A stretch of DNA of 64,000 nt from Ctenodactylus gundi (GCA_048771875.1 CM109711.1:4239768-4303767), one strand, 5' to 3'; positions 1-49,334 are shown, numbered from the stretch's first letter. Made by a program: numbers and translations. The notes: generated from the sequence alone by a model not told the origin.

Positions 1-1504
1 TTGCATACCACCAGCTTTGGTTCTTCATCACCTGTGGGATGGGGGATGGGGTGAGGGGTAAACTGCCTTCACCTTCCTTCTGGACGCTCAGTCACCGCAT
101 CCGAGGACGGATGCTGCAATTTCTCCCACTGGAGGAACAACTCTTGCACTTAAGAAATGACACTGAGGACTTCCTGTAGAGCAGGGTCCCCACCACCCCT
201 TCCCCCGACTCCTGACAGAGATCCGCTTCCTCTCTCTGTGTTCCTGTAATGTTCTGACAGGAGGCAGAGCTTCATCCCCTCCTGCTGCTGCTGCTCCCCC
301 TTCAAAGCTCTCCTCCAACGACCTGCTGTGTAAGGAGTGTCCCCCTAACCCTGACCTTGGCAGAATGGTTTTCAACTAACGCGGTCCTTGTGGCAAGGCT
401 GGGACCACTGCTGTAGCACACACCGGAGCAGTTTCCAGGCAGTGGAGGAGACTGGACTCCACCTAGGCGGGTTGGGAGCAACAGAGTGAATCTGGGGTGC
501 CTCTTGTTGATGGTCCCCGTTGTGTCATGCCTGGATACCTCAGGCTTCTCCATGCTGCCACGTGGACTTGCTAGCTTGATCACGGATTGGGATGTGGACC
601 TAACAAGGAAGAGGAGGGACGGAGGATTCGAGAGAGAGGAAAGAGCTAGAAGGAGCACATGAGACAGGACATTGAGACATCAGGGAAATCAGTAAGCTGA
701 GAGTGCAAGCAGAATACAAAACAAAATCAAGCTGTGTGTGTTGGTGTGCATCTGTAATCTCACTACTGGGAAGACAGAGGCAGGACTGCTGTGGGTTCAA
801 GGCCAGCCTGGGCTTCACAGTGAGTTCAGGACCAGCCTGGACTATCTAGGAAAAACCTGTCTCAAAAAAAAAAAAAAGTCAATTGGAATTAGGTAAAAGT
901 TCCATTACCTGTTCAATATCTATCTTGAACATGAGAGAAAAAGGAGAGGAGAGGAGAAATGAGATGAGAGCATCACTGGCTGTTGTCGTGCGTCACCCTG
1001 GGTTCTTGCAGCCAGCAGCTGCACCCTGCTGCTAGTTCACCGCGGAGAATGTCCTTGCTCTCTGAGATGAATCCTCAGCACCAGATGGCGAGCCTGCAGG
1101 GGCACGGGTGGAGCACTGCCTGCCCTGCACTGTACTGCCCTCATTAAGGCCTGATAACTGCTCATTCCAGCCGCTCCCCGGGCTCCATCCTCTCCCCAGG
1201 GAGGCCCCTGCTAAGAAGGAACAGAGAGCTTTCCCCTGAGGGGGCCAACACTAGGAGTCTGGGCCAGTTTTAAGGTTGAAAGGAATTAGTCCTGGCAGAG
1301 GAGCCTTAAAGAGCAGAGTCTGTGACTTCCCTCTGGGTTTTAGCCTGAAGGCACGAACAAGTGTCCCAAGTGGATTACAACCACGACGCCCAAAGTTGCA
1401 AGTGAGAGGAATCATGCGTGTTTACCATTGTCTCTTTAAAGGCCTGAGTCTACACACAGAAGCTGCTGTTCTAACCATTTGAGAGAATAATCTTCCTTTC
1501 CTTA

Positions 1505-1800
1505 AAACTTCAGCTGGAGAGTATCTCAGTGGTTACAGCACTTGACTTGCCTAGGAAGTATAAAGTTGTGGGTCCAGTTCCCCAATGCCACATAATAGCT
1601 GGGTACCTGTGACCCCAGCACTTGAGAGGGTGAGGCACGCGGACTGCCTTGAGATCAAGACCAGCTTGGACTACAGAGAGCCCAGTGGCCCAGGTGTGTA
1701 AACCAGTCCCTGAGAGGCTGAGGCAAGAGAATCACAAGATTGAGCCTCGCCTGGACAACTTAGTGATGCAGTGAGATCCTGTGTCTAAGTCAAAAAAGAA
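1505..1800 (+). mobile_element. Dimeric ID/B1-type SINE
   Basis: tRNA-like head ggctggagagtatctcagtggttacagcacttg, followed by a B1-like ccagcacttgagag..gctgaggcaagagaatcacaag and an A-rich tail. Paralogous copy at 28025-28320. Confidence 0.6.
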
Positions 1801-3194
1801 AGTGGGTCAGAGATAAGGCTGTGTGTCAGGACCGGGGGTTGGACCCACAGTCTCGACTTCCCTCACATATTCCTTTTGAAGCCCCTTGCCCACCAGCCCT
1901 AATTAACTGTTCCGTGTTCCTCAATCGGTTCACTGGAGGGATTGTTCCTGGCAGCGCCCAGGGCATTGCAGTCTGGCCAGCGGAGGCATAATGTCAGGCT
2001 TTGCACAACGCCTGACCATCCCTTGCTGTGAGATGAACAGCAGGACACGGTGACCTGGTGGAGTGATTCCAGGATGGCCTAACCCAGAACTCTCCTCGCG
2101 CTGAGGTCACGTGTGAGACTCTGCGCTCTCCCTGTGGCACGGTGCCTTCTAGGCCTGGCCCACCGCTCCCGTGCCGTGTACCAATAAACCACCAACTCTT
2201 TCCTTGGCTGGTGATACATTCTTTCACCAGCCCACCATTCCTCTACAGGCCATGCCAGTCATAGCAGTTCTCAAATTTAGGATGATCCCCAGAAGTGGAC
2301 CTGTGTCTCTCATGTTCTAGCTTCCCACTTCACTAATGGACTGTTTCTGGGAAGGGATATCTGAGGTTCACGTCCCCCTGCAGCCCCAAGTCTCCCTTCT
2401 CCGAGAGGAAAGGTTTGAAGGACCTGGCAGACAGAATGGATAGAAGTTGCTATGACCATGCACCTCTGTAATCCCAGCACTTCGGTGGCTAAGGCAAGAA
2501 GACTGCCATGAGTTAGAGGCCATCCTCGGCTATGCAGAGAGCTCAAGTCTAGCCTGGCCTACTGTCTAACTCTGTCTCAAGAAAACAGAAAAAGAAGAAA
2601 AGAGAAGAAGTAAAAGGGGAATTGCATGGGGTGGAAGCAAGCACAGTGAGATACTGATTGTGGTAGACTGAATTTTCACCACATAATCAAACTTCACTCC
2701 ATGTTTGGAATTTTCATAATATCAGACAAGGGAAAGATAAAAAAAATTGGCAAGGAAATAGGCACTTGGTACGGGGTCCTGGCAGTGTGAGCCCTTGACA
2801 GAATCTATTTTAGAAGCCGGAAGAGGGCCATGTTTATCTAGGCAGGTGGCACATTTCAGGTGAGAGCCCCTACAGGCCTTGTAGCTGAGGGGGAGCCCGC
2901 TGCAGCCCCATAGACTGTACCCTAGATCTTACTAGCTACGTTTGTCCCTCGAAAGTTCTGGCCCTATTGTTGGCACCAAGTTTATTCTGCCCCTCTGTGA
3001 TTTGATAGTCAGCCCACAGTGGTTCCCACCTTGCCAGCTGTAATCCTTGAGGGAGGGGCAAGATAAGATGTTCCAGACCCTGCCCCACACCTGACCCTAA
3101 GAGGCTGATCATATTTGCTCAGGAGGAGAGGTTCACACGGTGAGTGTGGGAGGTAGGGGGTGGGGGGTTTGGGGGGCAGGGGAGGAAGGGTTTT

Positions 3195-3252
3195 GACCTG
3201 GTATAAATATCTGGGAGTACCTGGGGGGTATTTTTGCATCTGGAAGTGACAG
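3195..3252 (+). promoter_or_regulatory. ZG16: Putative ZG16 copy A core promoter with TATA box and a short non-coding first exon
   Basis: TATAAATA at 3202-3209, with a G-rich tract upstream. GT donor (caggtaagg) at 3253, about 50 nt downstream. The ATG exon at 4157 has a polypyrimidine tract and AG acceptor, which implies an upstream 5' exon. The same arrangement is seen at 29751-29803 in copy B. Confidence 0.45.
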
Positions 3253-4163
3253 GTAAGGCATGATGAAGGATGTCCAGATTAGAGTTAGGGGGCACTGCGT
3301 GTGAGGTGGAAAATATTCCTAGGTTAAGTGGCAGGAGAGCTTCAGGGCCAGGGAGGTGGGGCCCTTGGAGCAGAGCATTTGGGTGCAAGCCTGTGGTTTC
3401 AGCTGAAGGAAAGAGGGCATGAGGGCCTCACAGGAATTAAATGGCTAGTTGAATGTGAGACAGTTATGGCAAACAGACCACGCACTTGGGATCCAGTGTG
3501 TCCAGTGTCGGATTGTCCCAACTCCTTCTGCAACTTTTCAGGCTAGCCAAGCTTACGAGGTGCTGGGGAATAGAACTCAGGGCTGAGTGCTTGCTAGGCA
3601 AGCACTCTAACCATCGTGCCATTCATCCTCTATCTCAGTTAGGCCTGAACTGCTGTGACACTGACGTCAGCACAGCCTCTTCTGTCAGTACCTTCCTTCC
3701 TAAGGCGACACAGAGGCACCGCTACAATGCTCCCTTCTTTCTGATTTGAGACCAGGCGGAAGCTGGGAATTCAGTGGTGCCCTGGGTGCCCACTAGTGAG
3801 ACTAGTCTACTGGCTGCCTTCGTTAGGCGTTCCTCAGGTCCCCTTGCCAGGGTGGAATGGGGTTTGACTCAGCCTCATCTGGACACAGTTGGGATCGGCC
3901 ATCTGGTTTGGGAGGGAAGAGGAGGGTTGTTAACTGCAGCCATACCAGGGACAGCCATAGGGAGTGGGGCCATCAAAGACGGTATCCCGAAGGGACAGAT
4001 CCCAGATAGAGTCTTCTCTGGGCTCAGGACTGGGTGGGCTTGGTGTGAGGTGAAGAACAGAAAGAGCCCAAGTCTAGACTGGGGGACCGGATGGCAGATA
4101 CGTGACCTCCAGAGGGAGGAGGACGAGCTGTCGTTTCTCCTTTGTTCCCACTGCAGCCCCAGC

Positions 4164-4218
4164 ATGCTGACCATCGCCCTCCTCGGCCTTCTCTGCGCCT
4201 CGGCCTCTGCCAGTGCCA
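4164..4218 (+). CDS. ZG16: ZG16 copy A coding exon 1: signal peptide MLTIALLGLLCASASASA, phase-1 GT donor at 4219
   Basis: ATG at 4164 follows the acceptor ttcccactgcag|cc. The translation matches the N-terminus of human and mouse ZG16 (MLTVALLALLCASASG...). Donor is gtaagt. Confidence 0.85.
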
Positions 4219-4373
4219 GTAAGTGAGAAGTCCTGAGCCCGGCGGGGGTCGTGGGAGGGCAGTCCCTGTGCTGCTGTGGCCCAAGCTGTCAGACAGTCTT
4301 CGGATAGAGGGAACTGAGGTGCGGATGGTGGGGGTTTTGGTGGGGCCCTCACAGGGTTTCTCCTTCCCTCCAG

Positions 4374-4506
4374 TTGAGGCCAGGACCTCCTCCTACAACG
4401 GAGAGTATGGAGGTGGTGGAGGATCGAGGTTCTCCCATTCTGGGAACCAGCTGGAAGGCCCCATCACTGCCATCCGTGTGCGAGTCAACAGTTACTACAT
4501 CGTAGG
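4374..4506 (+). CDS. ZG16: ZG16 copy A coding exon 2 (..IEARTSSYNGEYGGGGGSRFSHSGNQLEGPITAIRVRVNSYYIVG)
   Basis: Acceptor ccctccag|tt. Reading frame is continuous with exon 1. Matches human ZG16 residues about 19-62 (SRFSHSGNQL.GPITA.RVRVN.YYIVG). Donor gtaaga at 4507. Confidence 0.88.
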
Positions 4507-4586
4507 GTAAGAGTCCTTTGAGTTTCTGTGGTCTGGGGACACCTGCTGTGGATAGCCCTGATTCACTTTTGACCACATCTGTTTTT

Positions 4587-4758
4587 TTCCCCTATTTTAT
4601 TGATATGTACAAGTGCAGAATTTAAGGTTTACAATGGAGTTGAGCATTTTGTGCACATATGTATCTTGTCAAGGTGACAAGGACTTTCCCGCTCTCCTTT
4701 TGTCCCTCCCTTACCCTCCCTTCCCTCCCTCCATCCCCACTGTCCCCCTCTTTCGCTT
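4587..4758 (-). mobile_element. L1 3'-UTR fragment inserted in ZG16-A intron 2, specific to copy A
   Basis: Flanked by the target-site duplication tgaccacatctgttt at 4572-4586 and 4759-4773. Absent from the orthologous site in copy B (31095-31120). The same L1 3'-end family is seen at 21120-21360, 21940-22110 and 47870-48130. Confidence 0.75.
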
Positions 4759-6310
4759 TGACCACATCTGTTTCAATCAACAAGTCACAGGTGTAATGTG
4801 ACATGGAGAGAAGTTGTTAAAAGGCCAGTATTCAAATTTGTGCTGTTACTGTTCTCGAAAATCCCCAAGGAAACAGCCCCTCTGATTGGGCCTGAAAATG
4901 TTAACCTCAGGGAAATCAGCCTGGGAAGCAGTCCTGTGCAGCACCCATGCCCCCCTTTAACTAAGTCTGTAATAGTTGAACTGTGAAGCTGTGTAGCTAT
5001 TTGTGCAGCTCAAGGTCAAGAATACAGCCTATTGCCAGGACAGGCAAGGAGAGAGGGCCAAAGACAGTGTGTACTGAAGTTTGCTTTGTGTGAAGAGAAA
5101 CTGTTTCAGCAAACTTGTTCTGCAGGCATTTCTATTTGTTACTGTGTTCTATGCTCGTTGGCTAGCAAGTCGACACCCTGTGCAAAGTGTATAGAAGTAT
5201 CCTGCCCCTGAGCTAGAGAGACCCAAGCCTTTTTGGAATTATTCATGCGAAGGTACCCTAGCAAGGTTAATAAATCTTCCTCTCACTTCTGACCTCCAGG
5301 CTCTGAGTCTTGTTACTGCTGGGTTTATCAAATTTCTGTAACATTCCTGGAGGATGGTGTAGTCTTTGCGGGAGCAGTTTTCCAGTTCTGTGACTAAAGC
5401 TTTCCTGAATACAGTAGGGAAGTTTTTGAGGCCCGAGGGGAAGCTGGTCCAGGTTAGCTGTCCTTTTTGTCACTGTGTCTTTTTACTCAAATGCAATCAG
5501 ATGCTGGCTGACCTCTGCCAGACCCAATCAGGAGAAAGCACCTTTCAGATCTAGGCAGGTGAGCATGCAGGAGGGTGCACAGGTTAAGAACAACTGGATG
5601 CATGGCTTCCACTGTCTTTGACCATACGCAGGTCTTGCGCAGGTCCACAGTCATTAGTACGCGGTGCCTTGACTAGGTGCGGTTGGTGCACTAGCTGTGT
5701 TTCAGGCTAGTCCGTCCCCTCATTTTCTCTGGCCTCTGAGGACACAGGATGCTGTCTGTGGTCCACTGGGTTAGTTGTCCCCTTTTGCCAGTCTTACCCT
5801 TCTATCGTGGTCCCAGATTTTAGGGAATCTCTGGAGCACTTGCACTAGGAACAGCTGAGGCACCAGCCATGTGTCAGCCGCAAGGAGGGGTCCATCCTAT
5901 TTCCTGTGGATGGAGCGTCTTTAAAGTTAATACAAGCAGGGCATTTGGGCCAGGGCCCCAAGTGTCTCGTCACTGTGGTGCCCAATTTAGATAACAAGTT
6001 TCTCCCTAAGAGCGAGCCTGGTGCCTCTGGAATTCAGAGGAACCAGTGCCAGACCTGCTATCTTTCTTAGCAGGTGTCATGGCCCCAAAGTGAGGTGGAG
6101 GCTGTCAGTAGTCATGGGGACTGGTCCCACTAGCAGGGGCTGTGAGGGACCTTTTGAGGCCAGGCACCAGCAGTTACTCAAAGGACCACAGAGAAACTCT
6201 CCAGGAGACTAAAGTGGAGAACACGAACCAGTATGCGCTGTCCTCGCATTTCCTTGGGTCTCCTGTGATAGGCTGCGCATTTGCAGCTTGAGGCAAAGGC
6301 AGTTCCAGCC

Positions 6311-7199
6311 TCACAGCTGGCTCCTGGCTGGGCAGCACCAGTTGGGACAGGAGCAAGAGACAGGGAACCATCCCACAGTGGGCACAGTGCCAGTGCCTGC
6401 TGGGCTGTGTGAGCTAGGGCAGGAATGTGAGGTGGGGAGACAGAAGCCATCTGCTCTTTGTTTTTGGACAGTGGGGCCTCTCACTCTGATCTCCAATTCC
6501 AACAAAAACTCGAAGAAAGTGATCTTTTGGGGGAGAGGAGAAGAGTGTGGGAGTATCTCACAGAGGACAGAAAGAAATGGGGGCCATGTCTGGGTGGGTG
6601 GATAATTGACCTGAAGCTGGGCACCTTCCCCACCTCTCGGGTGCAGGCTTTGTGGTTTGAGATGACAGGGAAGGGTATGGACGTGCTCTAAGTTGAACCT
6701 CTGGCTCTGGATCTGGGGAGGTGGCTGAGCAGGGCGCAGGGCCTTGCTCATCTGGTGGGGCATGAGGAATTGCTGCCACTGGCTGCATCGACCTTGGGAT
6801 GGCCAGCAGGGCACACAACAGGGGCTCATCTTCTGGCTCCTGGGCCAGGAAGGTGGGAGGTGGCTTTTGAGGCTTTTGGTGTGTTGTGAGCACTGCCATG
6901 GACCCTAAGGACGCAGGAAACCGCAGCTGGTCAGGTCGGCAAGCAGCCAAAGCATACCAAGAGCCAATGTAAGGAAAGTGAACTGGGTCTCCCTTGCAGC
7001 TCTCCCTTATACGAGCAACCATGGCCAAGTCCAACATTCCTTCAGGTGGCCATTCTGCTTCCAGTGTGGGCCACTCTCCTTCACAAAGGACCTGGTGGCT
7101 CTCTGGCTTCATCCGCACACCATAGTTTGCAGAGTAACCAGCTTTGAAGTGGCTCAGCACAGCCTGTAGTATGTCAGCTTCCCTCTCTCCTACAGCCAA
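6311..7199 (-). mobile_element. Endogenous gammaretrovirus-like gag fragment (MA/p15-like domain), antisense in ZG16-A intron 2, with a frameshift
   Basis: The minus-strand ORF 7199..6558 reads ..CEGEWPTLEAEWPPEGML...DPVHFPYIGSWYALAA...KPQKPPPTFL. From memory, this matches the MLV Gag MA motifs [32 protein letters not shown] and PKPPPPLPP. A second ORF (6829..6311) continues in another frame. The two are joined into a single ORF in copy B. Confidence 0.6.
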
Positions 7200-8689
7200 A
7201 GGAACCCATTTTATGTATGCCTACCATGTGGCCAGTGTCACAAGAAGAGGACAGGTGACCCCTGATGGAGACCACCCGGGCACCTGTCTGGCTGTGCCCC
7301 GCAGGAGCTTAGGTGTGGCTTCTGCATAGGGGGTTTCCTGGAGATGTTCAGCTCGACAGTGACTAATGACCAGACACTAGTCCATTCCCAGCCTAGGCCA
7401 TGTGCCAATCACCATGAAGTTGCAGAACCAGGCCCAATAAGTGCTCATAGCCTGAAGGGGACCTTAAGGATGTGAAGTTGTGAGACCACAACATCAACCA
7501 GACTCACTTAGCAGAACAGTTGCTCATTCACTCACCAGTCCCACAAGAGGTTATCACAAAAATCTCTATTTAAATTCCTCTAAATTAATGCTGCTGTTTA
7601 ACCCAATCTGGTAACCTATAACCTATAACCTGTTAGCTAGACCTGCAATTTCCTGATGACTGGAATCCTCCAGTCCCTCGTGTCCCAAGTTTCCGGTCAT
7701 CGTCTGCCATGGAAGGAGGGGAGTGGATACTTACAATCTCTTTCGAGGGCACTCTAATTGTTTTCTGTGGGGATCAATCTGCAAGGGCTCCTCACTACCC
7801 ACCCCAGGGACAACCTACCTAGTGTGGACATCCACTGTAAGTCTCTGTCTCACTCTGCCAGCCTGTAGTGTCGGTCATTAGCTGTGCAACTGTTTTCATG
7901 TGTCAAGAAAGGGACCCCAGAATTCCATCAGAGGTGCACATTTCCTGGTTCCAGGGACTGCAGTACGCTACAGGGTCAGGAATAGTAACCCTGACCCAAA
8001 TGGGTCCAGCCAGTCTTATTACTGGTGTATCACTGGGGCTTCCAGGAATGTTACAGACATCCAATACCACCAGGAAATATCAAATGAACAGAGGTTAGAT
8101 GAAGATTTATTACGCTAGTATGCCTTTTTCTAGATCATTCCAAAAATGGAGGGCCAGAACTCCAGGGCAGGCTACTTTCACACACTTTGTGGGATCAAGG
8201 GGGAGCCTTGCTGTCCAGCAAGCTGGGGACACGGAGATATCAGCCTGGCAAGTTTGCACAAACAGTTTCGTCTTTACACAAAGCCAGCTGCAGACAGCAC
8301 CCTTCGTCCTTGGCCCTGCAGCACACTCTCTCACTGCCGGCCTAGGGGGCAGGCTCTGTGCTTGTGCTGGAGCTACACTGCCAGGCACACCGCTTGACAC
8401 TTTAACTGTTACAGACTCAGCAGAGGGGCGGAGGGTGAGTGCTTTCTCTTAGGTTGTTTCAGGCCCAGTCAAGAGGGGCTGCTTTCCTGGGAATCTACCA
8501 CGATGTTACAATTCCTGTGCTCCAACACGTGTGACTTGGCAAGTCACGTAGCAAGGAACTTTTAGGGACCGGAAATCTGTGTGTGTCAGCCTCCACCCAA
8601 AGTTTAAAACTCCTTTGTAATATTCCTGTCAGATACCTTTCATGTCTGGTTCCTGTCTCTCTCTCTCTGTCTTCCTTTTGGAGACCAGG

Positions 8690-8865
8690 TATTGCTCTGT
8701 AGCCCAGGCTGGCTTCAAACTCACAACAGTTCTCTGCCTTACCTCCTAAGTGCTGGTATTACTGGCATGCAACTCCACGCCCAGCTTACGTGGTGCTTGG
8801 GAATTGAACCAGGACCTCATGCTTTTTATGCAAGTGCCTTAACCACTGTGCGCCAGCTCTTAGTG
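8690..8865 (-). mobile_element. tRNA-derived SINE (ID/B1-like), antisense
   Basis: RC of the SINE head: ..ttaaccactgtgcgccagctc. Paralogous copy at 35460-35640. Confidence 0.55.
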
Positions 8866-9527
8866 TCGCTATGTATCCTTGCTCATTTCATATAGTTAAA
8901 AATTCTACAATATGAAGAGGCAAAGTGTTTCCTCTGATACGCATTTTGTATCCTGAGACATCACTGCCAAGTCTCTTCTCTTTCCCACATGAGAAACTTG
9001 CAGGTAGTTTGAAAATAGTTTAGCATCAGGCTTGGTAGCACAGGCCTGTAATTCCAGCCCTCTGAGAGGGTTCCAAGTTTAAGACCAGCCTGGACATTTT
9101 AGTAGCTTAGTAAGGCCCTATCTCAAAATAAAAACTAAAAATGGGCAAGGGGCATAGCTTAGTATGAATGTCCTGGACTCAATCCCACTAATTAGTTAAC
9201 TTAAGAAACCAAAACAAAGGAAAAAAACACCCTTCTTGGTTCTTTGAAGTGAGGAATAGGAGCACAGAAGATCTTGGACTCCAAATTCAAGCTCTGACCT
9301 TGGCTTTCCAGGGGACTCTGAGCAATTCCTTTTCCTTTCCTTCTAGGAGGCTATTTGTGGGCAATATGAGGAGTTGATGTTCCCTGGGGGATCGTCTAGG
9401 GCTCACCCAGCTTTCGTATTCCGTGGGACCAGCAGGGGACCTGTCATCTCTGTCCCCATTTTGAGGCCTGGAGGTTCTGGATTCTAACCCTATTGTGTCT
9501 CCCTCCTCCCTCTTCAACCACCCCCAG

Positions 9528-9843
9528 GCTCCAGGTGCGCTATGGAAAGGAGTGGAGTGACTATGTGGGTGGCAAACAGGGTGACCTGGAGGAGATCTAC
9601 CTGCACCCTGGGGAGTCAGTGATCCAGGTGTCCGGCAAGTACAAGAGCTATGTGAAGCAGCTGGTCTTTGTTACGGACAAGGGCCGCTACCTGCCTTTTG
9701 GGAAAGACACCGGCACCAGCTTCAATGCTGCTCCATTGCATCCCGACACTGTCCTCCGATTCATCAGTGGCCGATCTAGTTCCGCCATCAATGCCATTGG
9801 CTTTCACTGGGATAATTACCCCAGTGAGTACAGCAGCTGCTGA
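9528..9843 (+). CDS. ZG16: ZG16 copy A coding exon 3: jacalin-type lectin domain (LQVRYGKEWSDYVGG...HWDNYPSEYSSC*), stop TGA 9841-9843
   Basis: Acceptor cccccag|g. Long near-match to human ZG16 (LQVRYG..WSDYVGG..GDLEEI.LHPGESVIQVSGKYK...VFVTDKGRYL.FGK..GTSFNA.PLHP.TVLRFISGRS). Total CDS is 504 nt, giving 167 aa, the same length as human ZG16. Confidence 0.9.
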
Positions 9844-9921
9844 GACCTGCCTCCTCTATGGCAGGGAGAACATGATTAGCATAAAAACTCCACCATTAGC
9901 TCCTCCCACACAGATGGCTTA

Positions 9922-9927
9922 ATAAAA
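9922..9927 (+). terminator. ZG16: ZG16 copy A polyadenylation signal AATAAA
   Basis: AATAAA lies about 80 nt after the stop codon. Confidence 0.5.
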
Positions 9928-19020: not shown

Positions 19021-19021
19021 T

Positions 19022-21119: not shown

Positions 21120-22110
21120 TTCCCAGTATTTTTATTAATAAACACATGCAATATATAATGTTTACAATGAATTTGAGTATTTTCTGCACACATATATCAA
21201 CTTTACATTCTCTTCCCATTTTTGACCCTCCCACACTCTCCCCTTCTTTTCCCCCCAATTCCAGCTATCACCTCATGTGGTTCTATAGAATGTCTGTATT
21301 CTGGGTTTCCCAAGTCAGAGAGACTGTTCAGTACTTAACATATTTAATCTTCTGCATCTGAATCATTTCACTTAAATCTCCACTCTTTAGCTTAGCTTCC
21401 TATTCCTCGAATGGGCTGCAGTGGTCAAATCTCATGCCTCTTCTCTGAGTCTAGCCAATCCTTTTATTGAGATATTTGCTAAAAGTTCTTTTGGGTTTTT
21501 TTTTTTCCTATATTTTGCTGTATCTTTGTTGAGATTCTTAAACCTGGCCTCACCCACCAGTCCACATAAGAAAAGAACTACAACCATGTAAATCAAAAGG
21601 CTAGTAAATATGAGAAAGAAAAAGAAAAGTTAAATTTCAAATGCCTTAGCTGATTACTGGAAGATACATGTTTGTACATTCAAAGGGTTGTCTTTACATC
21701 AATCAGTTTTCTTAGGATAAACTTACATCAAACACCTAATTAGTGAATTGCTACAGTAAACCAATTTGAACTATATCACATACATATACTTAAAGTAACT
21801 ATATCACATACATATAAAGTAATTTAGCTATTTCAGAATTTTTAACTTTCATAACTTATTTACTCACTGATTAACATTTTGATAGATTTGGTTTATAATT
21901 TTATTTGCCTATTCATATATGCATGCATATCTATTTTTATAAGATTTTATGTTGGGAGGGTGGGGTAGGTAGGGGGAGGGACAAAAGGAGAGTGGCAAAG
22001 CAGCCCTTGTCACCTTGACAAGATACGAATGTGCACAAAATGCCCAACCTCATTGTAAACCTTGAATTTTGCATGTATACATATCAATAAAATGTGGGGA
22101 AAAATAAAAA
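21120..22110. mobile_element. Two inverted L1 3'-UTR fragments (21120-21360 minus, 21940-22110 plus) flanking AT-rich sequence
   Basis: Sequence family shared with 4587-4758 and 47870-48130. Confidence 0.5.
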
Positions 22111-22199
22111 TAAAAAATAAAAAGATTTTATGTCAATTCCTCATGTTACATGTAATTATTCTGTTTTGCACACTACTATACTATTACTAATAATGATGT

Positions 22200-27500: not shown

Positions 27501-29744
27501 GGACTGGCGTCACCTGGGGACCTTGCACCCAAGAGCTGCACCCTATTTCCAGTTCACCAGGGAAGGACTTCCTCCTTATCTGAGATGAATCCTCAGCACC
27601 AGATGGCGAGCCTGCAGGGGCACGGGTGGAGCACTGCCTGCCCCGCACTGTACTGCCCTCATTAAGGCCTGATAACTGCTCATTCCAGCCGCTCCCTGGG
27701 TTCCATCCTTCTCTCCCCAGGGAGGGCCCTGCTAAGAAGGAACAGAGAGCCTTCCCCTGAGGGGGCCAACACTAGGACTCTGGGCCAGTTTTAAGGTTGA
27801 AAGGAATTAGTCCTGGTAGAGGAGCCTTAAAGAGCAGAGTCTGTGACTTCCCTCTGGGTTTTAGCCTGAAGGCACGAACAAGTGTCCCGAGTGGATTACA
27901 ACCATGAAGCCCAAAGTCGCAAGTGAGAGGAATCATGTGTATTTACCATTGTCTCTTTAAAGGCCTCTTTGCAGCTAGAACAGAAGCTGCTGTTCTAACC
28001 ATTTGAAAGAATAATCTTCCTTTCCTTAAAACTTCAGCTGGAGAGTATCTCAGTGGTTACAGCACTTGACTTGCCTAGGAAGTATAAAGTTGTGGGTCCA
28101 GTTCCCCAATGCCACATAATAGCTGGGTACCTGTGACCCCAGCACTTGAGAGGGTGAGGCACGCGGACTGCCTTGAGATCAAGACCAGCTTGGACTACAG
28201 AGAGCCCCGTGGCCCAGGTGTGTAAACCAGTCCCTGAGAGGCTGAGGCAAGAGAATCACAAGATTGAGCCTCACCTGGACAACTTAGTGATGCAGTGAGA
28301 TCCTGTGTCTAAGTCAAAAAAGAAAGTGGGTCAGAGATAAGGCTGTGTGTCAGGACCGGGGGTTGGACCAACAGTCTCAACTTCCCTCACATATTCCTTT
28401 TGAAGCCCCTTGCCCACCAGCCCTAATTAACTGTTCTGTGTTCCTCAATCGGTTCACTGGAGGGATTGTTCCTGGCAGTGCCCAGGGCATTGCAGTCTGG
28501 CCAGCGGAGGCATAATGTCAGGCTTTGCACAACGCCTGACCATCCCTTGCTGAGAGATGAACAGCAGGACACGGTGACTGGTGGAGTGATTCCAGGATGG
28601 CCTAACCCAGAACTCTCCTCGCGCTGAGGTCACGTGTGAGACTCTCTGCGCTCTCCCTGTGGCACGGTTCCTTCTAGGCCTGGCCCACCGCTCCCGTGCC
28701 GTGTACCAATAAACCACCAACTCTTTCCTTGGCTGGTGATACATTCTTTCACCAGCCCACCATTCCTCTACAGGCCATGCCAGTCATAGCAGTTCTCAAA
28801 TTTCAGGTTGATCCCCAGAAGTGGACCTGTGTCCCTCACTTTCTAGCTTCCCACTTCGCTAATGGACTGTGTCTGGGAAGGGATATCTGAGGTTCACGTC
28901 CCCCTGCAGCCCCAAGTCGCCCTTCTCCGAGAGGAAAGGTTTGAAGGACTTGGCAGACAGAACAGATAGACGTTGCTATGACCATGCACCTCTGTAATCC
29001 CAGCACTTGTGAGGCTGAGACAGGAAGACTTTCATGAGTTAGAGGCCATGCTCAGCTATGCAGTTAGCTCAAGTCTAGTGGGGCCTCCTGAGCAAGATCC
29101 TATCTCAAGTTAAAAAAAAAAACAAGAAGAAAAAGAATAAAAATGCATGGTTGGAAGCAAGCACAGTGAGATACTGATTGGGGTAGACACTAGGAATTTT
29201 CACCGCACAATCAAACTTGACTAAATGTTTGGAATTTTCAGAATAAAGGCAAGGGAAAGAAAAAAAGCAAGGAAATAGTAGGCAATCTCAGTACAGGGTC
29301 TTGGGAGTGTGTGCCCTTGACAGAATCTGCATTTCAGAAGATGGGAGAGGGCCATATTTATCTAGGTATATGGCACATTTCAGGTGAGAGCCCCTACAGG
29401 GGTTTCAACTGAGGGGTTGCCCGCTGCAGCCCTCTTAGGCTGTACCCTAGATCTGTTTGTTTTTTTTGTTTTTTTTGTTTTTTTTTTTTTTGTATGCTAG
29501 ATCTGAGTAGCTACGTTTGTCCCTCAAAAGTTCTGGCCCTTTTGTTGCCGGTAACTTAAGTTTATCCTGCCCCTCATGTGATTTGGCAGTTGGCCACAGT
29601 GGGCCCCACCTTGCCAGCTGTGACCCTTGTCAGAGGGGCAGGATAAGATGTTCCAGACCCTGCCCCACACCTGACCCTAAGAGGCTGATCGTGTTTGCTC
29701 AGAAGGTGAGGTTCATGCGATAAGGGCCAGGGGGGAGGTCTTCG

Positions 29745-29801
29745 ACCTGGTATAAATATCTGGAAGTACCTGGGGGCTTATTTTGCATCTGAAAGTGCCA
29801 G
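29745..29801 (+). promoter_or_regulatory. Putative ZG16 copy B core promoter with TATA box and a short non-coding first exon
   Basis: TATAAATA at 29751-29758 and donor g|gtaagg at 29802. This is the paralogous counterpart of 3195-3252. Confidence 0.4.
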
Positions 29802-30702
29802 GTAAGGTGTGACAAGGATGTCCTGATCAGAGTTAGGGGCTACCAGGTGTGAGGTGGAGAAGAAGATTCCTAGATTGAGTGGCAGGAGAGCTTCAGGGAC
29901 AGGGAGGCGGGGCCCCTGGAGCTGAGCATTTAGATGCCAAGATGTCTGGTTTCATGGGGGCATGAGGGGCTCTCCAGAATTAAATGGCTAGGTATGGGTG
30001 AAATGGTTATGACCAAAAAAACAAAAAACAACAGGCATCTGGAATCCAGTGTCGGATTGTCCCAACTCCTTCTGCAACTTTTCAGGCTAGCCAAGCTCAC
30101 GTGGTGCTAGGGAATAGAACTCACGGCTGAGTGCTTGCAAGCACTCTAACCATCATGCCATTCATCCTCTATCTCAGGCCTGAACTGTTGTGACACTGAC
30201 ATCAGCACAGCCTCTTCTGTCACTACCTTCCTTCCTAAGGCGACCCAGAGGCACCGCTACAATGCTCCCTTTCTGGTTTGAGACCAGGCGGAAGCTGGGA
30301 ATTTAATGGTGCCCTGGGTGCCCACTAGTGAGGCTAGTCTACTGGCTGCCTTTGTTAGGTGTTCCTCAGGTCCCCTTGCCAGGGTAGGATGGGGTTTGAC
30401 TCAGCCTCACCCGGATCCAGTTGGGATCGGCCATCTGGTTTGGGGGGGGGGGGGGAAGAGGAGGGTTGTTAACTGCAGCCATACCAGGGACAGCCATAGG
30501 GAGCGGGGCCATCAAAGACGGTGTCCCGAAGGGACAGATCCCAGATGGAGTCTTCTCTGAGCTCAGGACTGGGTGGGCTCGGTGTGAGGTGAAGAACAGA
30601 AAGAGCCCGAGTCTAGACTGGGGGACCGGATGGCCGATACATGACCTCCAGAGGGAGGAGGACGAGCTGTCGTTTCTCCTTTGTTCCCACTGCAGCCCCA
30701 GC

Positions 30703-30757
30703 ATGCTGACCATCGCCCTCCTCGGCCTTCTCTGCGCCTCGGCCTCTGCCAGTGCCA
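30703..30757 (+). CDS. ZG16 paralog (copy B) coding exon 1, signal peptide identical to copy A
   Basis: ATG at 30703. Translation MLTIALLGLLCASASASA. Donor gtaagt at 30758. Confidence 0.85.
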
Positions 30758-30909
30758 GTAAGTGAGAAGTCCTGAGCCCGGCGGGGGTCGTGGGAGGGCA
30801 GTCCCTGTGCTGCTGTGGCCCAAGCTGTCAGACATTCGGATGGAGGGAACTGAGGTGCGGATGGTGGGGGTTTTGGTGGGGTCCTCACAGGGTTTCTCCT
30901 TCCCTCCAG

Positions 30910-31042
30910 TTCAGGCCAGGTCCTCTTCCTTCAACGGAGAGTATGGAGGTGGTGGAGGATCGAGATTCTCCCATTCTGGGAACCAGCTGGAAGGCCCCAT
31001 CACTGCCATCCGTGTCCGAGTCAACAGTTACTACATCGTAGG
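30910..31042 (+). CDS. ZG16 paralog (copy B) coding exon 2 (..IQARSSSFNGEYGGGGGSRFSHSGNQLEGPITAIRVRVNSYYIVG)
   Basis: Acceptor ag at 30908-30909 and donor gt at 31043. Reading frame is intact. There are a few amino-acid differences from copy A (EARTSSY versus QARSSSF). Confidence 0.85.
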
Positions 31043-32755
31043 GTAAGAGTCCTTTGAGTTTCTGTGGTGTGGGGACTCAGGTTGTGGAAAGTATTCATTC
31101 CATTCGACCACATCGGTTTCAATCAACAAGTCACAGGTGTAATGTGACATGGAGAGAAGTTGTTAAAAGGCCAGTATTCAAATTTGTGCTGTTACTGTTG
31201 TGGAAGATCCCCAGGAAAACAACCCCTCTGACTGAGCCTGAAAACTGTTAACCCAAGAGAAATCAGGCTGAGAAAGCAGCCCTGTCCTCCTCCTTAACTA
31301 AGTTTGTTATGCTGAAGATTGCTTTGTGTAAACAGGAACTGTTTCAGCCCACTTTGTAAGCAGGCATTATTTGGTTCCTATGTTTCTGCTTGATGCCTGG
31401 GAATCCCCTTCTTCCCAGGCTAAAGTATATAAAAGTAGCCTGACACTGAGATTGGGGCCCAACCATTTTTGGAATGATCTTGGTGAGGGGACTCGTCTTA
31501 GCTAAATAAATGTTCCTCTAACCCCTGACGTTTAGGCGCTGAATCTTGTCATTGCTGGGTTTATCAGATTTCTGTAACATTCCTGGAGGATGGTGCAGGT
31601 TTTTTTTTTTTTTTTTTTTTTTAGGTTGGGAGGGAGACAGCGGATTGGGAAGAGTGATGCTGGGGGAAGGGGACAATGACAGTTTTCCAATTCTGACTAA
31701 AACCTTCTGGATATAGCAGGGAAGTTTTTGAGGCCCAAGAGGAAGCTGGTCCAGGTTAACTGTCCTTTTTGTCACTGTGTCTTTTTACTCAAATGCAATC
31801 AAATGCTGGCTGACCTCTGCCAGACTCAATCAGGAGAAAGCACCTTTCAGATCTAGGCAGGTGAGCACGCAGGAGGGTGCACAGGTTAAGAACAACTGGA
31901 TGCATGGCTTCCACTGTCTTTGACCATACGCAGGTCTTGCGCAGGTCCACAGTCATTAGTACGAGGTCCCTTGACTAGGTGCAGTTGGTGCACTAGCTGT
32001 GTTTCAGGCTAGTCCATCCCCTCATTTTCTCTGGCCTCTGAGGACACACGGTGCTGTCTGTGGCCCACTGGGTTGGTTGTCCCCTTTTGCCAGTCTTACC
32101 CTTCTATCGTGGTCTCAGATTTTAGGGAATCTCTGGAGCACTTGCACTAGGAACAGCTGAGGCACCAGCCATGTGTCCGCCGCAAGGAGGTGTCCATCCT
32201 ATTTCCTGTGGATGGAGCTTCTTTAAAGTCAATACAAGCAGGGCATTTGGGCCAGGGCCCCAAGTGTCTCGTCACTGTGGTGCCCAATTTAGAGCGAGCC
32301 TGGTGCCTCTGGAATTCAGAGGAACCAGTGCCAGACCTGCTATCTTTCTTAGCAGGTGTCGTGACCCCAAAGTGAGGTGGAGGCTGTCAGTAGTCGTGGG
32401 GACTGGTCCCACTAGCAGGGGCTGCGAAGGACTGGTTGAGGCTGGGCTCTTGCAGTTACTCAAGGGCCCAAAAAGAAACTCCAGGAAATAACTCTCCCAT
32501 GGCAACCCTGGAACCAGTCTGGGCTCTCTTCCTAGCATTTTGCCAGTTCCCAGGTGATGAGCTGCGTATTTGTATCCCGAGGCAAGGGCGGTTACAGTCC
32601 TATAGTTGGCTCCTGGCTGGGCAGCACCAGGTGGGACAGGAGCAAGAGACAGGGAACAGCCCACAGTGGGCACAGAGCAGGTGCCTGCTGGGCTGTGTGA
32701 GCTAGGGCAGGAATGTGAGGTGGGGAGACAGAGCCATATGCTGGCTCTTTGTTTA

Positions 32756-32888
32756 CCTTTTTATTTATTTATTGTGTTGTATATTTGGTTTTTTTTGGTG
32801 GTGCTGGCGAATCAAACTCAGGTATTTAGCACTTGATTTAGCTCTTTCTAGGCACACATTTTAACTGCTGAACCATTTCTCCAGCCCC
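32756..32888 (-). mobile_element. Copy-B-specific SINE insertion with target-site duplication
   Basis: The TSD ctggctctttgttta occurs at 32741-32755 and again at 32889-32903. The orthologous site in copy A (about 6440-6470) is unoccupied. Confidence 0.7.
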
Positions 32889-33048
32889 TGGCTCTTTGTT
32901 TAGAACCAGTGGGTCCTATCACTCTAATCTCCAGTTCCAACAAAAACTCTATATAAAGTGATCATTTAGGGGGGCAGAAGGAATCTGGAAAATTTTCACA
33001 GAAGACACTAAAGAATCTGGTTTGGGTCTGGATTGGTGAATAATTGGC

Positions 33049-33630
33049 TCAAAGCTGGGCACCTTCCCCACCTCTCAGGTGCAGGCTTTGTGGTTTGAGA
33101 TGACAGGGAAGGGTATGGACGTGCTCTAAGTTGAACCTCTGGCTCTGGATCTGGGGAGGTGGCTGAGCAGGGCCTTGCTCATCTGGTGGGGCATGAGGAA
33201 TTGCTGCCACTGGCTGCATCAACCTTGGGATGGCCAGCAGGGCACACAACAGGGGCTCATCTTCTGGCTCCTGGGCCAGGAAGGTGGGAGGTGGCTTTTG
33301 AGGCTTTTGGTGTGTTGTGAGCACTGCCATGGACCCTAAGGATGCAGGAAACCGCAGCTGGTCAGGTCGGCAAGCAGCCAAAGCATACCAAGAGCCAATG
33401 TAAGGAAAGTGAACTGGGTCTCCCTTGCAGCTCTCCCTTATACGAGCAACCATGGCCAAGTCCAACATTCCTTCAGGTGGCCATTCTGCTTCCAGTGTGG
33501 GCCACTCTCCTTCACAAAGGACCTGGTGGCTCTCTGGCTTCATCCGCACACCATAGTTTGCAGAGTAACCAGCTTTGAAGTGGCTCAGCACAGCCTGTAG
33601 TATGTCAGCTTCCCTCTCTCCTAGAGCCAA
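33049..33630 (-). mobile_element. Paralogous copy of the ERV gag-like fragment in ZG16-B intron 2
   Basis: 193-aa minus-strand ORF. It differs from the copy A ORF by 2 amino acids over about 150 residues. Nucleotide identity is about 99.5%. Confidence 0.6.
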
Positions 33631-34511
33631 AGGAACCCATTTTATGTATGCCTACCATGTGGCCAGTGTCACAAGAAGAGGACAGGTGACCCCTGATGGA
33701 GACCACCCGGGCACCTGTCTGGCTGTGCCCCGCAGGAGCTTAGGTGTGGCTTCTGCATAGGGGGTTTCCTGGAGATGTTCAGCTCGACAGTGACTTATGA
33801 CCAGACACTAGTCCATTCCCAGCCTAGGCCATGTGCCAATCACCATGGAGTTGCAGAACCAGGCCCAATAAGTGCTCATAGCCTGAAGGGGACCTTAGGG
33901 ATGTGAACTTGTGAGACCACAACATCAACCAGACTCACTTAGCAGAACAGCTGCTCATTCACTCACCATTCCCACAAGAGGTTATCACAAAAATCTCTAT
34001 TTAAATTCCTCTAAATTAATGCTGCTGTTTAACCCAATCTGGTAACCTATAACCTATAACCTGTTAGCTAGACCTGCAATTTCCTGATGACTGGAATCCT
34101 TCAGTCCCTCGTGTCCCAAGTTTCCGGTCATCGTCTGCCATGGAAGGAGGGGAGTGGATACTTACAATCTCTTTCGAGGGCACTCTAATTGTTTTCTGTG
34201 GGGATCAATCTGCAAGGGCTCCTCACTACCCACCCCAGGGACAACCTACCTAGTGTGGACATCCACTGTAAGTCTCTGTCTCACTCTGCCAGCCTGGGGT
34301 GTCTGTCATTAGCTCTGCAGCCATTTTCATTTGTCGAGCAGGGAACCCTAGAATTCCATGAGGGATGCGCACTTCGTGTTTCCAGGGACTATCGCAGTTT
34401 ACAGCACCAGGGAATAGTGACCCTGACCCAAAAGGGTTCTGTTCAGCCTTATCACTGGTATCTTGCTCAGGCCACCACGTACATTACAGACATTTGATAA
34501 CCCCAAGGATG

Positions 34512-34790
34512 TCAAGACTTAGAGGGACTGGAGGAACAACTCGGGTTAAAGTGCTTGCCTAGCAAGTGCTACGTCAAGTGCTAAGTGCCTGAGTTCAATT
34601 CCTCAGCACCACATAAGCTGTACGTGGTGGTGCAAGCCTGTAATCCCAGTGTTCAGGAGGCTGAGGCAGGATGAGGATAGCCGTGATTCTAGGGCCAGCC
34701 TGGGCAGCTCTATAGTGAGTTCAAGACCAGCTTGAGCTATAGAAGGAGACCCTGCCTCAAAAAAGAAAAAGAAAAAAAGTTAAGAAAATG
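34512..34790 (+). mobile_element. Copy-B-specific ID/B1 SINE insertion with TSD (aagacttagag)
   Basis: SINE head ggactggaggaacaactcgggttaaagtgcttgcc; direct repeats aagacttagag occur on both sides of the SINE (about 34512-34522 and again at the end of the insertion, before 34790). No SINE in copy A near 8090. Confidence 0.6.
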
Positions 34791-35376
34791 AAAAAAGACT
34801 TAGAGCCAACAGTTCAGAGGTGAAAGATCTATTACTCTAGTGTGTGCCTTTCCCTAGATCATTCCAAAAATTGAGAGACCCTGAGCTCCAATAGCAGACT
34901 ACTTTTATCCATTTTATGGGGAAGGGGGGAGGGGAGAGGCCTTGCCAGACAGCATGCAAGGAACACAGAAACACAGAGAAATATCTGCATAGCAAGTTTG
35001 CAGAAAGTTTCTGTTTTACACAATGCAAGCCAGAGAGAGCACACTTTGTCCTTACCCCTATTGCACACTATCTCCCTGCCGGCCTAGGGAGCAGGATCTG
35101 TTCTTGTCCTTGAGCTACACTGCCATCAACACAGCTTCACAGTTTAACCGTTATAGACTCAGTTAGAGTTGAGGGGGGACGACTTGCTTTTCCTAGGTTG
35201 TATCAGACTCAATTAGAGGGACTCTTCCCCTGGGAATCTGCCACAACATACAATTCCTGTGCCCCTCAACATGTGTCACTTGTCAAGTGATATAGCCATG
35301 AACTTTCAGGTACCGGAAAGTTGTGTGTGTCAGCCTCCATCTAAACCTCCTTTGTAATATTCCTGTCATGTCTGGT

Positions 35377-35379
<3 letters not shown>

Positions 35380-35437
<58 letters not shown>
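35380..35437. repeat. (CT)n microsatellite
   Basis: About 29 CT units. The counterpart in copy A (about 8655-8675) has only about 6 units. Confidence 0.9.
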
Positions 35438-35441
<4 letters not shown>

Positions 35442-36309
35442 CCTTTTGAGCCCAGGCATTGCTTTATAGTCCAGGCTGGTCTTGAACTCACTATGTATCC
35501 CAGGCTAGCTTCAAACTCACAGTAGTTCTCTGCCTTAGCCTCCTACATGCTGGTATTACTGGCATACACCTCCATGCCCAGTTTACATCGTGCTTGGGAA
35601 TTGAACCAGGGTCTTACGCATATGCTTTAACCACTGTGCTATTTCTCCAGGTCTTGCTGTCTCTCTCTTCATATCTTTGTTCATTTTATATAGTTGAAAA
35701 TTTTTATAGTATGAAGAGGCAAAGTGTGTTCACTATGATCTGCACTGTGTATCCTGAGACAGGATACTGACAAGTCTCTTCCCTTTCTCACATGAGAGAC
35801 TTTCAGATGTTTGAAAATCCTTTAGCATCAGACCTGGTAGCACAGGCCTGTAATCCCAGCCCTCTGAGAGGGTTCCAAGTTTAAGACCACTCTGGGCATC
35901 TTAGCAACTTATCAAGACCCTATTTCAAAATTAAAACTAACAATGTACCAGGGGTGTAGCTCAGTATGAGGGTCTTGGACTCAATAACCAAGAACACTAA
36001 ATAAATAGATAAATAAATAAATAAACCCTTCTTCTGCTTTAAAGTAAGGAATCAGTACACAACAAGATCTTGGACTCCAAATTCAAGCTCTGACCTTGAT
36101 TTCCAGGGGACTCTGAGCAATTCCTTCTCCTTTCCTGTTTGTGGGCAATATGAGGAGTTGATGTTCCCTGGGATCGTCTAGGGCTCACCCAGCTTTCGTA
36201 TTCTGTGGGACCAGCAGGGGACCTGTCATCTCTGTCCCCATTTTGAGGCCTGGAGGTTCTGGATTCTAACCCTATTGTGTTTCCCTCTTCCCTCTTCAAC
36301 CACCCCCAG

Positions 36310-36613
36310 GCTCCAGGTGCGCTATGGAAAGGAGTGGAGTGACTATGTGGGTGGCAAACAGGGTGACCTGGAGGAGATCTACCTGCACCCTGGGGAGTCA
36401 GTGATCCAGGTGTCCGGCAAGTACAAGAGCTACGTGAGGAAGCTGGTCTTTGTGACAGACAAGGGCCGCTACCTGGCGTTTGGGAAAGACACCGGCACCA
36501 GCTTCAATGCTGCTCCATTGCATCCCGACACTGTCCTCCGATTCATCAGTGGCCGATCTAGTTCCGCCATCAATGCCATTGGCTTTCACTGGGATAACTA
36601 TCCCACCTGCTAA
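36310..36613 (+). CDS. ZG16 paralog (copy B) coding exon 3, lectin domain ending ..HWDNYPTC*, stop TAA 36611-36613
   Basis: Acceptor ag at 36308-36309. The ORF is intact, giving a 163-aa protein. It differs from copy A at VKQL/VRKL and LPFG/LAFG, and has a shorter C-terminus. Confidence 0.85.
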
Positions 36614-36690
36614 GCCTGGCCTCCTCTATGGCAGAGGAATTGTGATTGACGTAAAAGCTCCATCGACATCTCCTTCCACCAAAATAGGTT

Positions 36691-36696
36691 AATAAA
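36691..36696 (+). terminator. ZG16 copy B polyadenylation signal AATAAA
   Basis: AATAAA lies about 80 nt downstream of the stop codon. Confidence 0.45.
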
Positions 36697-36865
36697 ATAG
36701 CATGGCTAAAGTTGGTGTGTAGATGGTGTTTTCAGCTGGGATTTGCCTTATTCTGGTAGAAACATGCAAATCTCATTTCTGGCTCTCTGTTGGCATAAAT
36801 CTGGGTGGGAAGATAAAGAGAAGTGTGAGACTACTGGGCCTCTCTATAATTTATCAAAAGTATGG

Positions 36866-36990
36866 CTGGGCATGGTGGTTCATGCCTGTAATCTCAACAC
36901 TCTGGGAGGCAGAGGCAGGACGATCATAAGTTTGGGCTCAGCCTCACAAATTCAGCAATTTGGCAAGACCCTGTGTGATGATGAAAAGTC
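36866..36990 (+). mobile_element. B1 SINE at the distal end of block I, copy B
   Basis: ggctgggcatggtggttcatgcctgtaatctcaacactctgggaggcagaggcagg.. Absent from copy A at 10095. Confidence 0.6.

Positions 36991-37993: not shown

Positions 37994-37997
<4 letters not shown>

Positions 37998-38036
<39 letters not shown>
37998..38036. repeat. (TA)n microsatellite
   Basis: tatatatata... Confidence 0.9.

Positions 38037-38041
<5 letters not shown>

Positions 38042-49091: not shown

Positions 49092-49334
<243 letters not shown>

Follow-up and report, generated by a model that had tools for sequence, protein, structure and literature searches.

A stretch of 64,000 nucleotides (nt) from the gundi Ctenodactylus gundi, a North African rodent (GCA_048771875.1 CM109711.1:4239768-4303767), referred to here at its full length as the window, carries two same-strand copies of the lectin gene ZG16, the second of which lies directly upstream of KIF22 on the same strand, with MAZ following downstream of KIF22. 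ZG16 keeps Gram-positive bacteria off the colon epithelium. It has also been found to bind fungal mannans and granule proteoglycans (PMC4059138, PMC9291870), and what ZG16 does physiologically, and what its redox tail is for, is still unclear (PMC9291870). We consider it likely that ZG16 was duplicated in tandem in the gundi lineage and was afterwards partly re-homogenised, both copies staying intact. An earlier reading of this DNA made from the sequence alone (the sequence-only reading) had proposed a direct duplication of the whole gene into two intact, diverged paralogs, and this core claim is supported by exact GenBank matches, synteny and single-copy outgroups; both paralogs are indeed intact and diverged, but their number was set too low, as the genome holds at least three.

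The upstream gene, ZG16-A, has coding exons at 4164-4218, 4374-4506 and 9528-9843 that encode 167 amino acids, and the downstream gene, ZG16-B, has coding exons at 30703-30757, 30910-31042 and 36310-36613 that encode 163, both sets having been located with a human ZG16 probe. All 4 of the 4 coding introns run from GT to AG. The exon with the start codon encodes the putative signal peptide and spans 4157-4218 (+) in A, with its acceptor CAG at 4154-4156 and its ATG at 4164, and 30696-30757 (+) in B, with its ATG at 30703. Residues 1-19 are identical between the two proteins, and residues 1-18 (MLTIALLGLLCASASASA), the putative signal peptide, align to the signal peptides of orthologs. Coding exon 2 (4374-4506, +) covers residues 19-63 and includes the GG loop, its counterpart in B being 30910-31042 (+). 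The last exon of A (9528-9926, +) has its stop codon at 9841-9843 and an AATAAA at 9921-9926, and that of B (36310-36696, +), whose tail shows an in-frame deletion of 12 nt when set against A, has its stop at 36611-36613 and an AATAAA at 36691-36696, so that the AATAAA lies 78 nt past the stop in each copy.

Upstream of the coding exons, ZG16-A has a TATA box, GGTATAAATATCTGG (3200-3214), followed by a short 5' non-coding exon that ends at 3252 with the donor GTAAGG at 3253 (feature 3200-3252, +; its start site is inferred), and ZG16-B has the same arrangement at 29749-29801 (+), with the TATA box at 29749-29763 and the donor at 29802. The TATA box, which the GTAAGG donor follows ~38 nt later, is conserved across A, B and Dipodomys, along with ~150 base pairs (bp) of upstream motifs, and an acceptor lies 7 nt ahead of each ATG. 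Because of this conserved TATA box and donor and the acceptor just before each ATG, the short 5' non-coding exon is real. Copy A alone also carries a ~31-nt G-rich insertion (GGGAGGTAGGGGGTGGGGGGTTTGGGGGGCAGGGG) at window positions ~3150-3190, ~25 nt upstream of the TATA box, that neither B nor Dipodomys has; it might fold into a G-quadruplex or influence the promoter. Intron 2 of ZG16-A contains an antisense gammaretroviral Gag_MA fragment (6561-7220, -; Pfam, 33.2 bits against a cutoff of 30), and the stretch of ZG16-B aligned to it (~33000-33650) is ~99% identical; in the Pfam scan of stop-to-stop segments this was the only family found. Most details of the sequence-only reading are borne out here, namely the two uninterrupted open reading frames (ORFs) of 167 and 163 residues with the same putative signal peptide, GT-AG introns and AATAAA, the TATA promoter with a putative 5' non-coding exon (present in A and B, with the promoter block conserved in Dipodomys), and the endogenous retrovirus (ERV) fragment in intron 2, now above the Pfam threshold. 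Its peptide differences between A and B (IEARTSSYN/IQARSSSFN, VKQL/VRKL and LPFG/LAFG) and its C-terminal tails (SEYSSC and TC) are exact as well; its estimate of 5-7% of residues replaced is reached only when the tail is counted, the body itself differing at 6 of 161 positions (3.7%).

Both proteins, known only as genome predictions of NCBI, match database entries exactly, A being KAM5227605.1 (167 residues) and B KAM5228343.1 (163 residues), each titled 'zymogen granule membrane protein 16-like [Ctenodactylus gundi]' and located on a 66.86-Mb scaffold. A third gundi protein, KAM5228212.1 (167 residues), comes from the same scaffold and falls in the same 90% cluster, and it is not encoded within the window. 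All three carry the Jacalin domain PF01419 at residues 28-156, with 76.7 bits for A, 74.1 for B and 76.5 for the third protein (cutoff 22), and a search of the PDB found ZG16 at E = 5e-81 (ungapped, residues 21-167) against 2e-17 for ZG16B. Among the top 120 database matches, those with descriptive names are ZG16, ZG16-like or jacalin-domain proteins, at 62-85% identity, and the exon lengths of 55 and 133 nt are the same as in Dipodomys. By domain, closest structure, exon structure and synteny, then, the predicted gundi genes are duplicates of ZG16 and not ZG16B. Residues S36, Y87 and A149 are common to 3 of 3 gundi proteins and rare or absent elsewhere. The third paralog is itself a mosaic, B-like at residues 20-26 and 106-107 and A-like at 119 and in the length of its tail; it has Lys102 changed to Ser and Thr137 to Asn, both positions being nearly invariant, and carries Cys146.

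Self-BLAST of the window pairs 14-10129 with 26472-36888, collinear and on the same strand, through five segments that are 79-93% identical, which reproduces to within ~30 bp the blocks 13-10095 and 26473-36866 of the sequence-only reading. The first part of unit A (14-10129, +; self-BLAST, MAFFT profile and edge check) contains ZG16-A with 3.2 kb of upstream DNA, all exons and the 3' untranslated region (UTR), and the first part of unit B (26472-36888, +; self-BLAST and alignment) is its homolog with ZG16-B. This ZG16 block stands as first described, but the whole unit is bigger, since a second homologous stretch, 16488-18846 in A and 38901-41633 in B (self-BLAST, MAFFT profile), takes in the 5' end of KIF22. 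In unit A this second part (+) begins with a fragment of L1 ORF2 (16488-17262) and continues into an orphan KIF22 CpG island and exon 1; in unit B (+) the L1 fragment (38901-39673) leads into the CpG island of the functional KIF22 gene, with its exon 1 and the first part of its intron 1. Between the 3' end of ZG16 and the L1 remnant lies filler that is unrelated in the alignment, 6.4 kb in A (10130-16487, with copy-specific insertions) versus 2.0 kb in B (36889-38900), and further copy-specific insertions of 150-400 bp distinguish the two units. The right breakpoint falls within KIF22 intron 1, at 18846 in A and 41633 in B, and the right junction of unit A adjoins a 3' fragment of L1 ORF2 (18816-19028, +). 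From there a repeat-rich spacer (18847-26471), with this L1 fragment at the junction and short interspersed elements (SINEs) beyond, separates the units. On the left, the homology of unit A ends 13 nt from the edge of the window; the unit is thus cut by the window start, and its size is the minimum seen.

Only unit B runs on into KIF22, and no downstream KIF22 exons follow the orphan exon 1 of unit A. The orphan CpG island (17263-18709, +; GC content 0.64, observed/expected CpG 1.09) is just as rich in CpG as its functional counterpart, 39674-41126 in B, and an identical run of 1,079 bp joins the orphan and the functional islands (17429-18507 = 39853-40933). The orphan copy of the exon-1 coding part (18598-18656, +) has an intact ATG and GT donor, and a 1-bp insertion shifts its frame; a diagnostic stretch reads GGTCCCG here and GGCTCG in the functional exon. 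The functional coding part, MDAGASARRSRREMAAATS (41024-41081, +), is followed by a GT donor and splices in frame to exon 2 at 45864, and exons 2 to the last (45864-55917, +; tblastn, ORFs) encode the kinesin motor and the helix-hairpin-helix tail, as located by tblastn with a KIF22 probe. If the orphan donor were spliced to the ATG exon of ZG16-B, 12 kb downstream, the product would be in frame from the first ATG.

The divergence of the two units is far from even. At the nucleotide level it is bimodal rather than uniform: in the MAFFT column profile, tracts at 98-100% identity alternate with tracts at 72-83%, and a two-state hidden Markov model assigns 6,844 columns to a state with 1.9% mismatch and 5,077 columns to a state with 20.3%. 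The longest run free of mismatches is the 1,079 bp shared by the KIF22 islands, where the longest such run across 1,000 permutations measured 159 bp, and mismatches per 100-column window have an index of dispersion of 9.5. All ZG16 coding exons fall within low-divergence tracts, and the tract over the last exon stops at 9815, just ahead of the codons of the diverging tail. In comparisons with Dipodomys and guinea pig, alignment (68-88% identity) is confined to the exons, the proximal promoter, KIF22 exon 1 and the last part of intron 2 together with the 3' UTR, and the near-identical ERV segment of the intron, the flank of the island and the L1 remnant have no BLAST counterpart in the Dipodomys or guinea-pig loci. 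Because the long near-identical tracts are not conserved in these two rodents, gene conversion would explain them better than constraint. The GC content is also higher in the low-divergence tracts, 0.54 versus 0.47 with the island excluded. Taken with these tracts, the A-like and B-like mosaic of the third paralog fits an old duplication, and A and B are probably the products of one, parts of which non-allelic gene conversion or unequal exchange has since made alike again.

The same mosaic can be read the other way round, as a recent duplication at ~2% divergence into which the 20% tracts were pasted by conversion from an older third paralog. The mixed protein of the third paralog (B-like at 20-26 and 106-107, A-like at 119 and in tail length) is compatible with such a history, as is the share of the aligned columns, more than half, that lies in low-divergence tracts. 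However, copy-specific insertions and deletions occur within the diverged tracts, and the non-homologous filler of 6.4 versus 2.0 kb could have arisen within a brief period only through many separate events, and we regard a recent origin as unlikely.

In favor of an old duplication confined to the gundi lineage, ZG16 occurs once in each of guinea pig, degu and Dipodomys, where ATG and stop are 1.2-1.6 kb apart and KIF22 lies ~5.8 kb downstream, and no second jacalin gene was found within 10 kb of ZG16 in these three; Nannospalax has a single compact ZG16, with no KIF22 called at its locus. Nannospalax and degu were compared from gene tables, and the DNA comparison used Dipodomys and guinea pig. 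Intron 2 measures 5 kb with the ERV in both gundi copies, compared with <1 kb in the outgroup rodents, and the ERV and L1 insertions common to both copies are absent at the outgroup loci, so that these insertions must predate either the duplication in the gundi lineage or the last time its copies were fully homogenised. In the diverged tract of the 3' UTR, A and B differ by 0.20-0.22 and stand 0.25-0.31 from guinea pig, and four-taxon site patterns in this tract group the two gundi copies together (AB|CD 12, versus 4 and 5 for the alternatives; p = 0.02). The expansion next to KIF22 is thus lineage-specific, as had been proposed, on the evidence of single-copy outgroups, insertions absent there and site patterns of 12:4:5. 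The divergence K in the diverged tracts is 0.24, versus a synonymous divergence (dS) of 0.51 between gundi and Dipodomys, which suggests that the duplication may be tens of millions of years old, a rough figure and a minimum, because earlier conversion would erase divergence. The shared L1 remnant of ~0.8 kb, only 76-80% identical between the units (ORF list, alignment), could serve as a neutral marker of this age. The guinea-pig promoter was tried as outgroup for the diverged promoter tract and dropped from the dating, as its alignment proved unreliable (61% differences), probably owing to a local repeat.

Comparison of A with B over 161 codons yields 6 nonsynonymous and 9 synonymous changes (nonsynonymous divergence, dN, 0.017; dS 0.081), and the resulting dN/dS of 0.20, a check that the sequence-only reading had proposed, lies below neutrality (binomial p = 0.003) and close to the ortholog values of 0.16-0.18. 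This ratio indicates purifying rather than diversifying selection on the pair. When the changes are polarised with Dipodomys, copy A carries 5 nonsynonymous and 4 synonymous changes and copy B 1 and 3. We presume that both copies are expressed, although one of the two might be dead or silent, its exons kept intact by conversion from the neighbor. Every coding exon does lie in converted tracts, copy A holds most of the derived amino-acid changes (5 nonsynonymous, 4 synonymous), A alone has the ~31-nt G-rich insertion upstream of its TATA box, and neither A nor B has the CXXC tail kept by most orthologs (PMC9291870). These features are answered by the retention in both copies of the TATA box, upstream motifs, splice sites and polyadenylation signal, by the dN/dS since the last homogenisation of 0.20, significantly below 1, and by the single-Cys tails of functional ZG16 in cattle, whales, rabbit and pika (alignment; PMC9291870), and a silent copy therefore appears improbable.

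The six differences in the body fall at positions 20, 23, 26, 106, 107 and 119, and human residue numbering applies to them, the alignment to the solved human ZG16 being ungapped from residue 21. In human ZG16p, mannose is contacted by Gly35, Gly147, Ser148, Leu149 and Asp151, and by Tyr104 via water, an anion patch proposed to bind phosphate is formed by Lys102, Lys106 and Lys122, and heparin is bound by Lys36, Arg37 and Arg55 (PMC4059138). At the mannose-contact positions A equals B throughout, and the heparin-site residues S36, R37 and R55 are also alike in the two; in the anion patch, position 106 is K in A and R in B, position 107 (Q/K) adjoins the patch and position 119 (P/A) is close to it. 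Each variant state (KQ, RK, A119, F26, T23) is seen in some single-copy ortholog, and the A/B variants for this reason look neutral or nearly so. The suggestion of the sequence-only reading that the substitutions may affect the glycan-binding loops is hence largely unsupported, with 0 of 6 at mannose contacts and only 106/107 touching the anion patch. Adaptive neofunctionalisation of the sugar site, with positive selection toward different glycans, could appeal to the KQ versus RK change two to three residues from the ligand-contacting Tyr104, to the place of Lys106 in the Lys102/Lys106/Lys122 patch proposed for phosphate or sulfate (PMC4059138), and to the closeness of position 119 to Lys122. 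It is nevertheless very unlikely, given that A equals B at Gly35, Tyr104 and 147-151, that the dN/dS of 0.20 equals the ortholog value, and that the variant states also occur in single-copy orthologs.

The GG loop (G34, G35) is retained in gundi, and the GXXXD motif is replaced, reading S147-S-A-I-N151 in A and B (codons 147-151 at ~9781-9795 and ~36563-36577, respectively) and G-I-A-I-N in the third copy. In the human protein the D151N mutant loses mannose binding (PMC4059138). Asn151 is found in platypus, a marsupial, rabbit, pika, bat, tiger, rhino, beaver and Dipodomys, and being this widespread in mammals it is ruled out as a gundi-specific loss of mannose binding; its spread also leads one to ask whether ZG16 binds mannose as a rule. 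Whether the gundi ZG16 proteins bind mannose is uncertain on sequence grounds, while their assignment to ZG16 is not. Most likely the products of A and B are secreted beta-prism lectins whose primary sugar pocket is essentially alike, and which would differ mildly at the anionic-ligand patch (K106/Q107 versus R106/K107) and clearly in the flexible tail.

That tail is the clearest difference between the two proteins. The human ZG16 tail carries a flexible, redox-active CXXC motif that is oxidised by QSOX1 and PDI, and some lineages have a single-Cys tail with Tyr or His in place of the first Cys (PMC9291870). Copy A ends in YPSEYSSC (...AGTGAGTACAGCAGCTGCTGA), a Tyr-substituted single-Cys form, copy B ends in YPTC (...ACCTGCTAA) through the 12-nt in-frame deletion, and the third paralog ends in YPSHCSSC with CXXC intact, so that the motif is lost from A and B and kept, as CSSC, in the third paralog only. 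It is unlikely that tail functions are split among these three forms and that, in addition, the orphan KIF22 promoter, kept identical to the functional one, acts 11 kb upstream of ZG16-B and gives it a new transcript or expression domain.

The weakest of the alternatives, an assembly artefact in which a single real ZG16 locus appears two times through a false duplication or a haplotype left uncollapsed, is extremely improbable: the long tracts at 99-100% identity, including the 1,079-bp run, do resemble the signal of a false duplication, but ~5 kb of the unit differs by ~20%, far beyond heterozygosity, insertions of 150-400 bp and filler of 6.4 versus 2.0 kb separate the copies, the rest of KIF22 follows unit B only, the window has no ambiguous bases (Ns) and comes from a species sampled for the Vertebrate Genomes Project, and three distinct proteins are annotated on the scaffold; the 20% tracts and the copy-specific indels all but rule out a haplotype or assembly duplicate.

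A tandem duplication followed by partial re-homogenisation would accordingly have run as follows. A segment comprising the whole of ZG16, the downstream intergenic DNA and the first ~0.2-0.6 kb of KIF22 would have undergone tandem duplication once the lineage had separated from guinea-pig-like rodents, giving the order ZG16-A, orphan KIF22 5' end, ZG16-B, complete KIF22 and MAZ, with the third paralog outside the window. Repeated gene conversion or unequal exchange would then have re-homogenised about half of the unit to ~2%, including all coding exons and the KIF22 island. Both copies retain the ancestral promoter and the residues of the jacalin fold, and purifying selection acts on them as it does on orthologs present in one copy. 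Several points weigh against this account. The constraint is seen for the pair and not per branch, and the polarised counts are tiny; one copy could be silent; the case for conversion draws on two outgroup loci and on absent BLAST similarity; the 20% tracts may date the A/B split or may have been imported from the third paralog; the age, ~0.7 of the distance from gundi to guinea pig, is rough and biased downward by past conversion; and the left edge lies at the window boundary, which leaves the size of the unit and its simple tandem layout provisional.

As for the remaining content of the window, a SINE family of ~150-250 bp occurs at 729-877, 13717-13953, 15715-15970, 19026-19261, 25211-25364, 27250-27399, 34524-34778, 43310-43560, 53805-54041 and other positions; it is 72-82% identical to repeats of the Dipodomys and guinea-pig loci and is probably B1-like, and one copy (34508-34759) is an insertion present only in intron 2 of ZG16-B. 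The L1 ORF2 remnants were recognised by eye in the ORF list, stop-to-stop segments of the spacers gave no protein-family match in Pfam, and an Rfam scan of the whole window returned no family at threshold. Directly downstream of KIF22, the 5' end of MAZ (56000-58000) reaches a GC content of 0.77, and both strands yield long spurious ORFs there. The guinea-pig locus has a pair of adjacent segments at 7941-9247 that both match the promoter region of gundi ZG16, and another adjacent pair at 17312-17922 that both match the KIF22 exon-1 region, which suggests small local tandem repeats.

Among known systems, the alpha- and gamma-globin duplicates of primates are the textbook case of concerted evolution by non-allelic gene conversion. 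The gundi locus is like them in its direct repeats tens of kb apart, in its sharp-edged near-identical tracts set in an old, diverged background, and in converted tracts that are GC-richer. The locus offers a clean, compact example of concerted evolution, in which a housekeeping-type CpG-island promoter was co-duplicated and stranded without its gene. In itself the gundi duplication is an ordinary lineage-specific expansion of a gene family whose proteins are already in the GenBank annotation, and a literature search for ZG16 gene duplication found nothing specific; the points added here are modest, namely an orphan KIF22 island identical to the functional one, a sharp conversion mosaic and three tail types in one genome.

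Human ZG16 (PDB 3APA, 3VY6-3VZG, 7O3I, 7O4P) is 81% identical to the gundi protein, ungapped over residues 21-167, and shares with it the Jacalin beta-prism, the three coding exons with a 5' non-coding exon, and the position upstream of KIF22. Gly34, Gly35, Arg37, Arg55, Tyr104, Lys102 and Lys122 of the human protein are kept in A and B, whereas human G-S-L-I-D is S-S-A-I-N in both gundi copies and human Lys36 is Ser; the human tail ends in CSRC, as against YSSC in A and a tail four residues shorter ending in TC in B, and unlike human ZG16 the gundi gene has at least three copies. ZG16B/PAUF (PDB 3AQG) has the same jacalin-related fold as the gundi proteins, but is a distant match (E = 2e-17). 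Multiple 'ZG16-like' entries are found for several other species among the database matches, and in rabbit an array (OZ175203.1, 6.97-7.16 Mb) has at least four same-strand jacalin genes on one chromosome, at ~6.98, 7.07 (two) and 7.15 Mb, with further distinct proteins on that same record. Some of the rabbit proteins have short single-Cys tails (YPRNC). This array is an independent event in Lagomorpha; it has more copies, wider spacing and more diverged proteins (70-85% identity) than the gundi one.

A parallel to the gundi tails is found in Cetartiodactyla, where cattle and takin (YPSDYESC) have Tyr for the first Cys of CXXC, as in copy A, with Tyr160 and Pro161 kept (PMC9291870). In the variants of that order Glu 'almost always' comes next to the replaced Cys on its C-terminal side (PMC9291870), a place where gundi copy A has Ser, and unlike the Cetartiodactyla the gundi carries single-Cys forms beside a CXXC paralog in one genome. 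If the tails do have distinct subfunctions, the three gundi forms would be a one-genome parallel of the tail split between mammalian orders, and as three natural tail variants on a near-identical lectin body they provide a comparison set for tail function.

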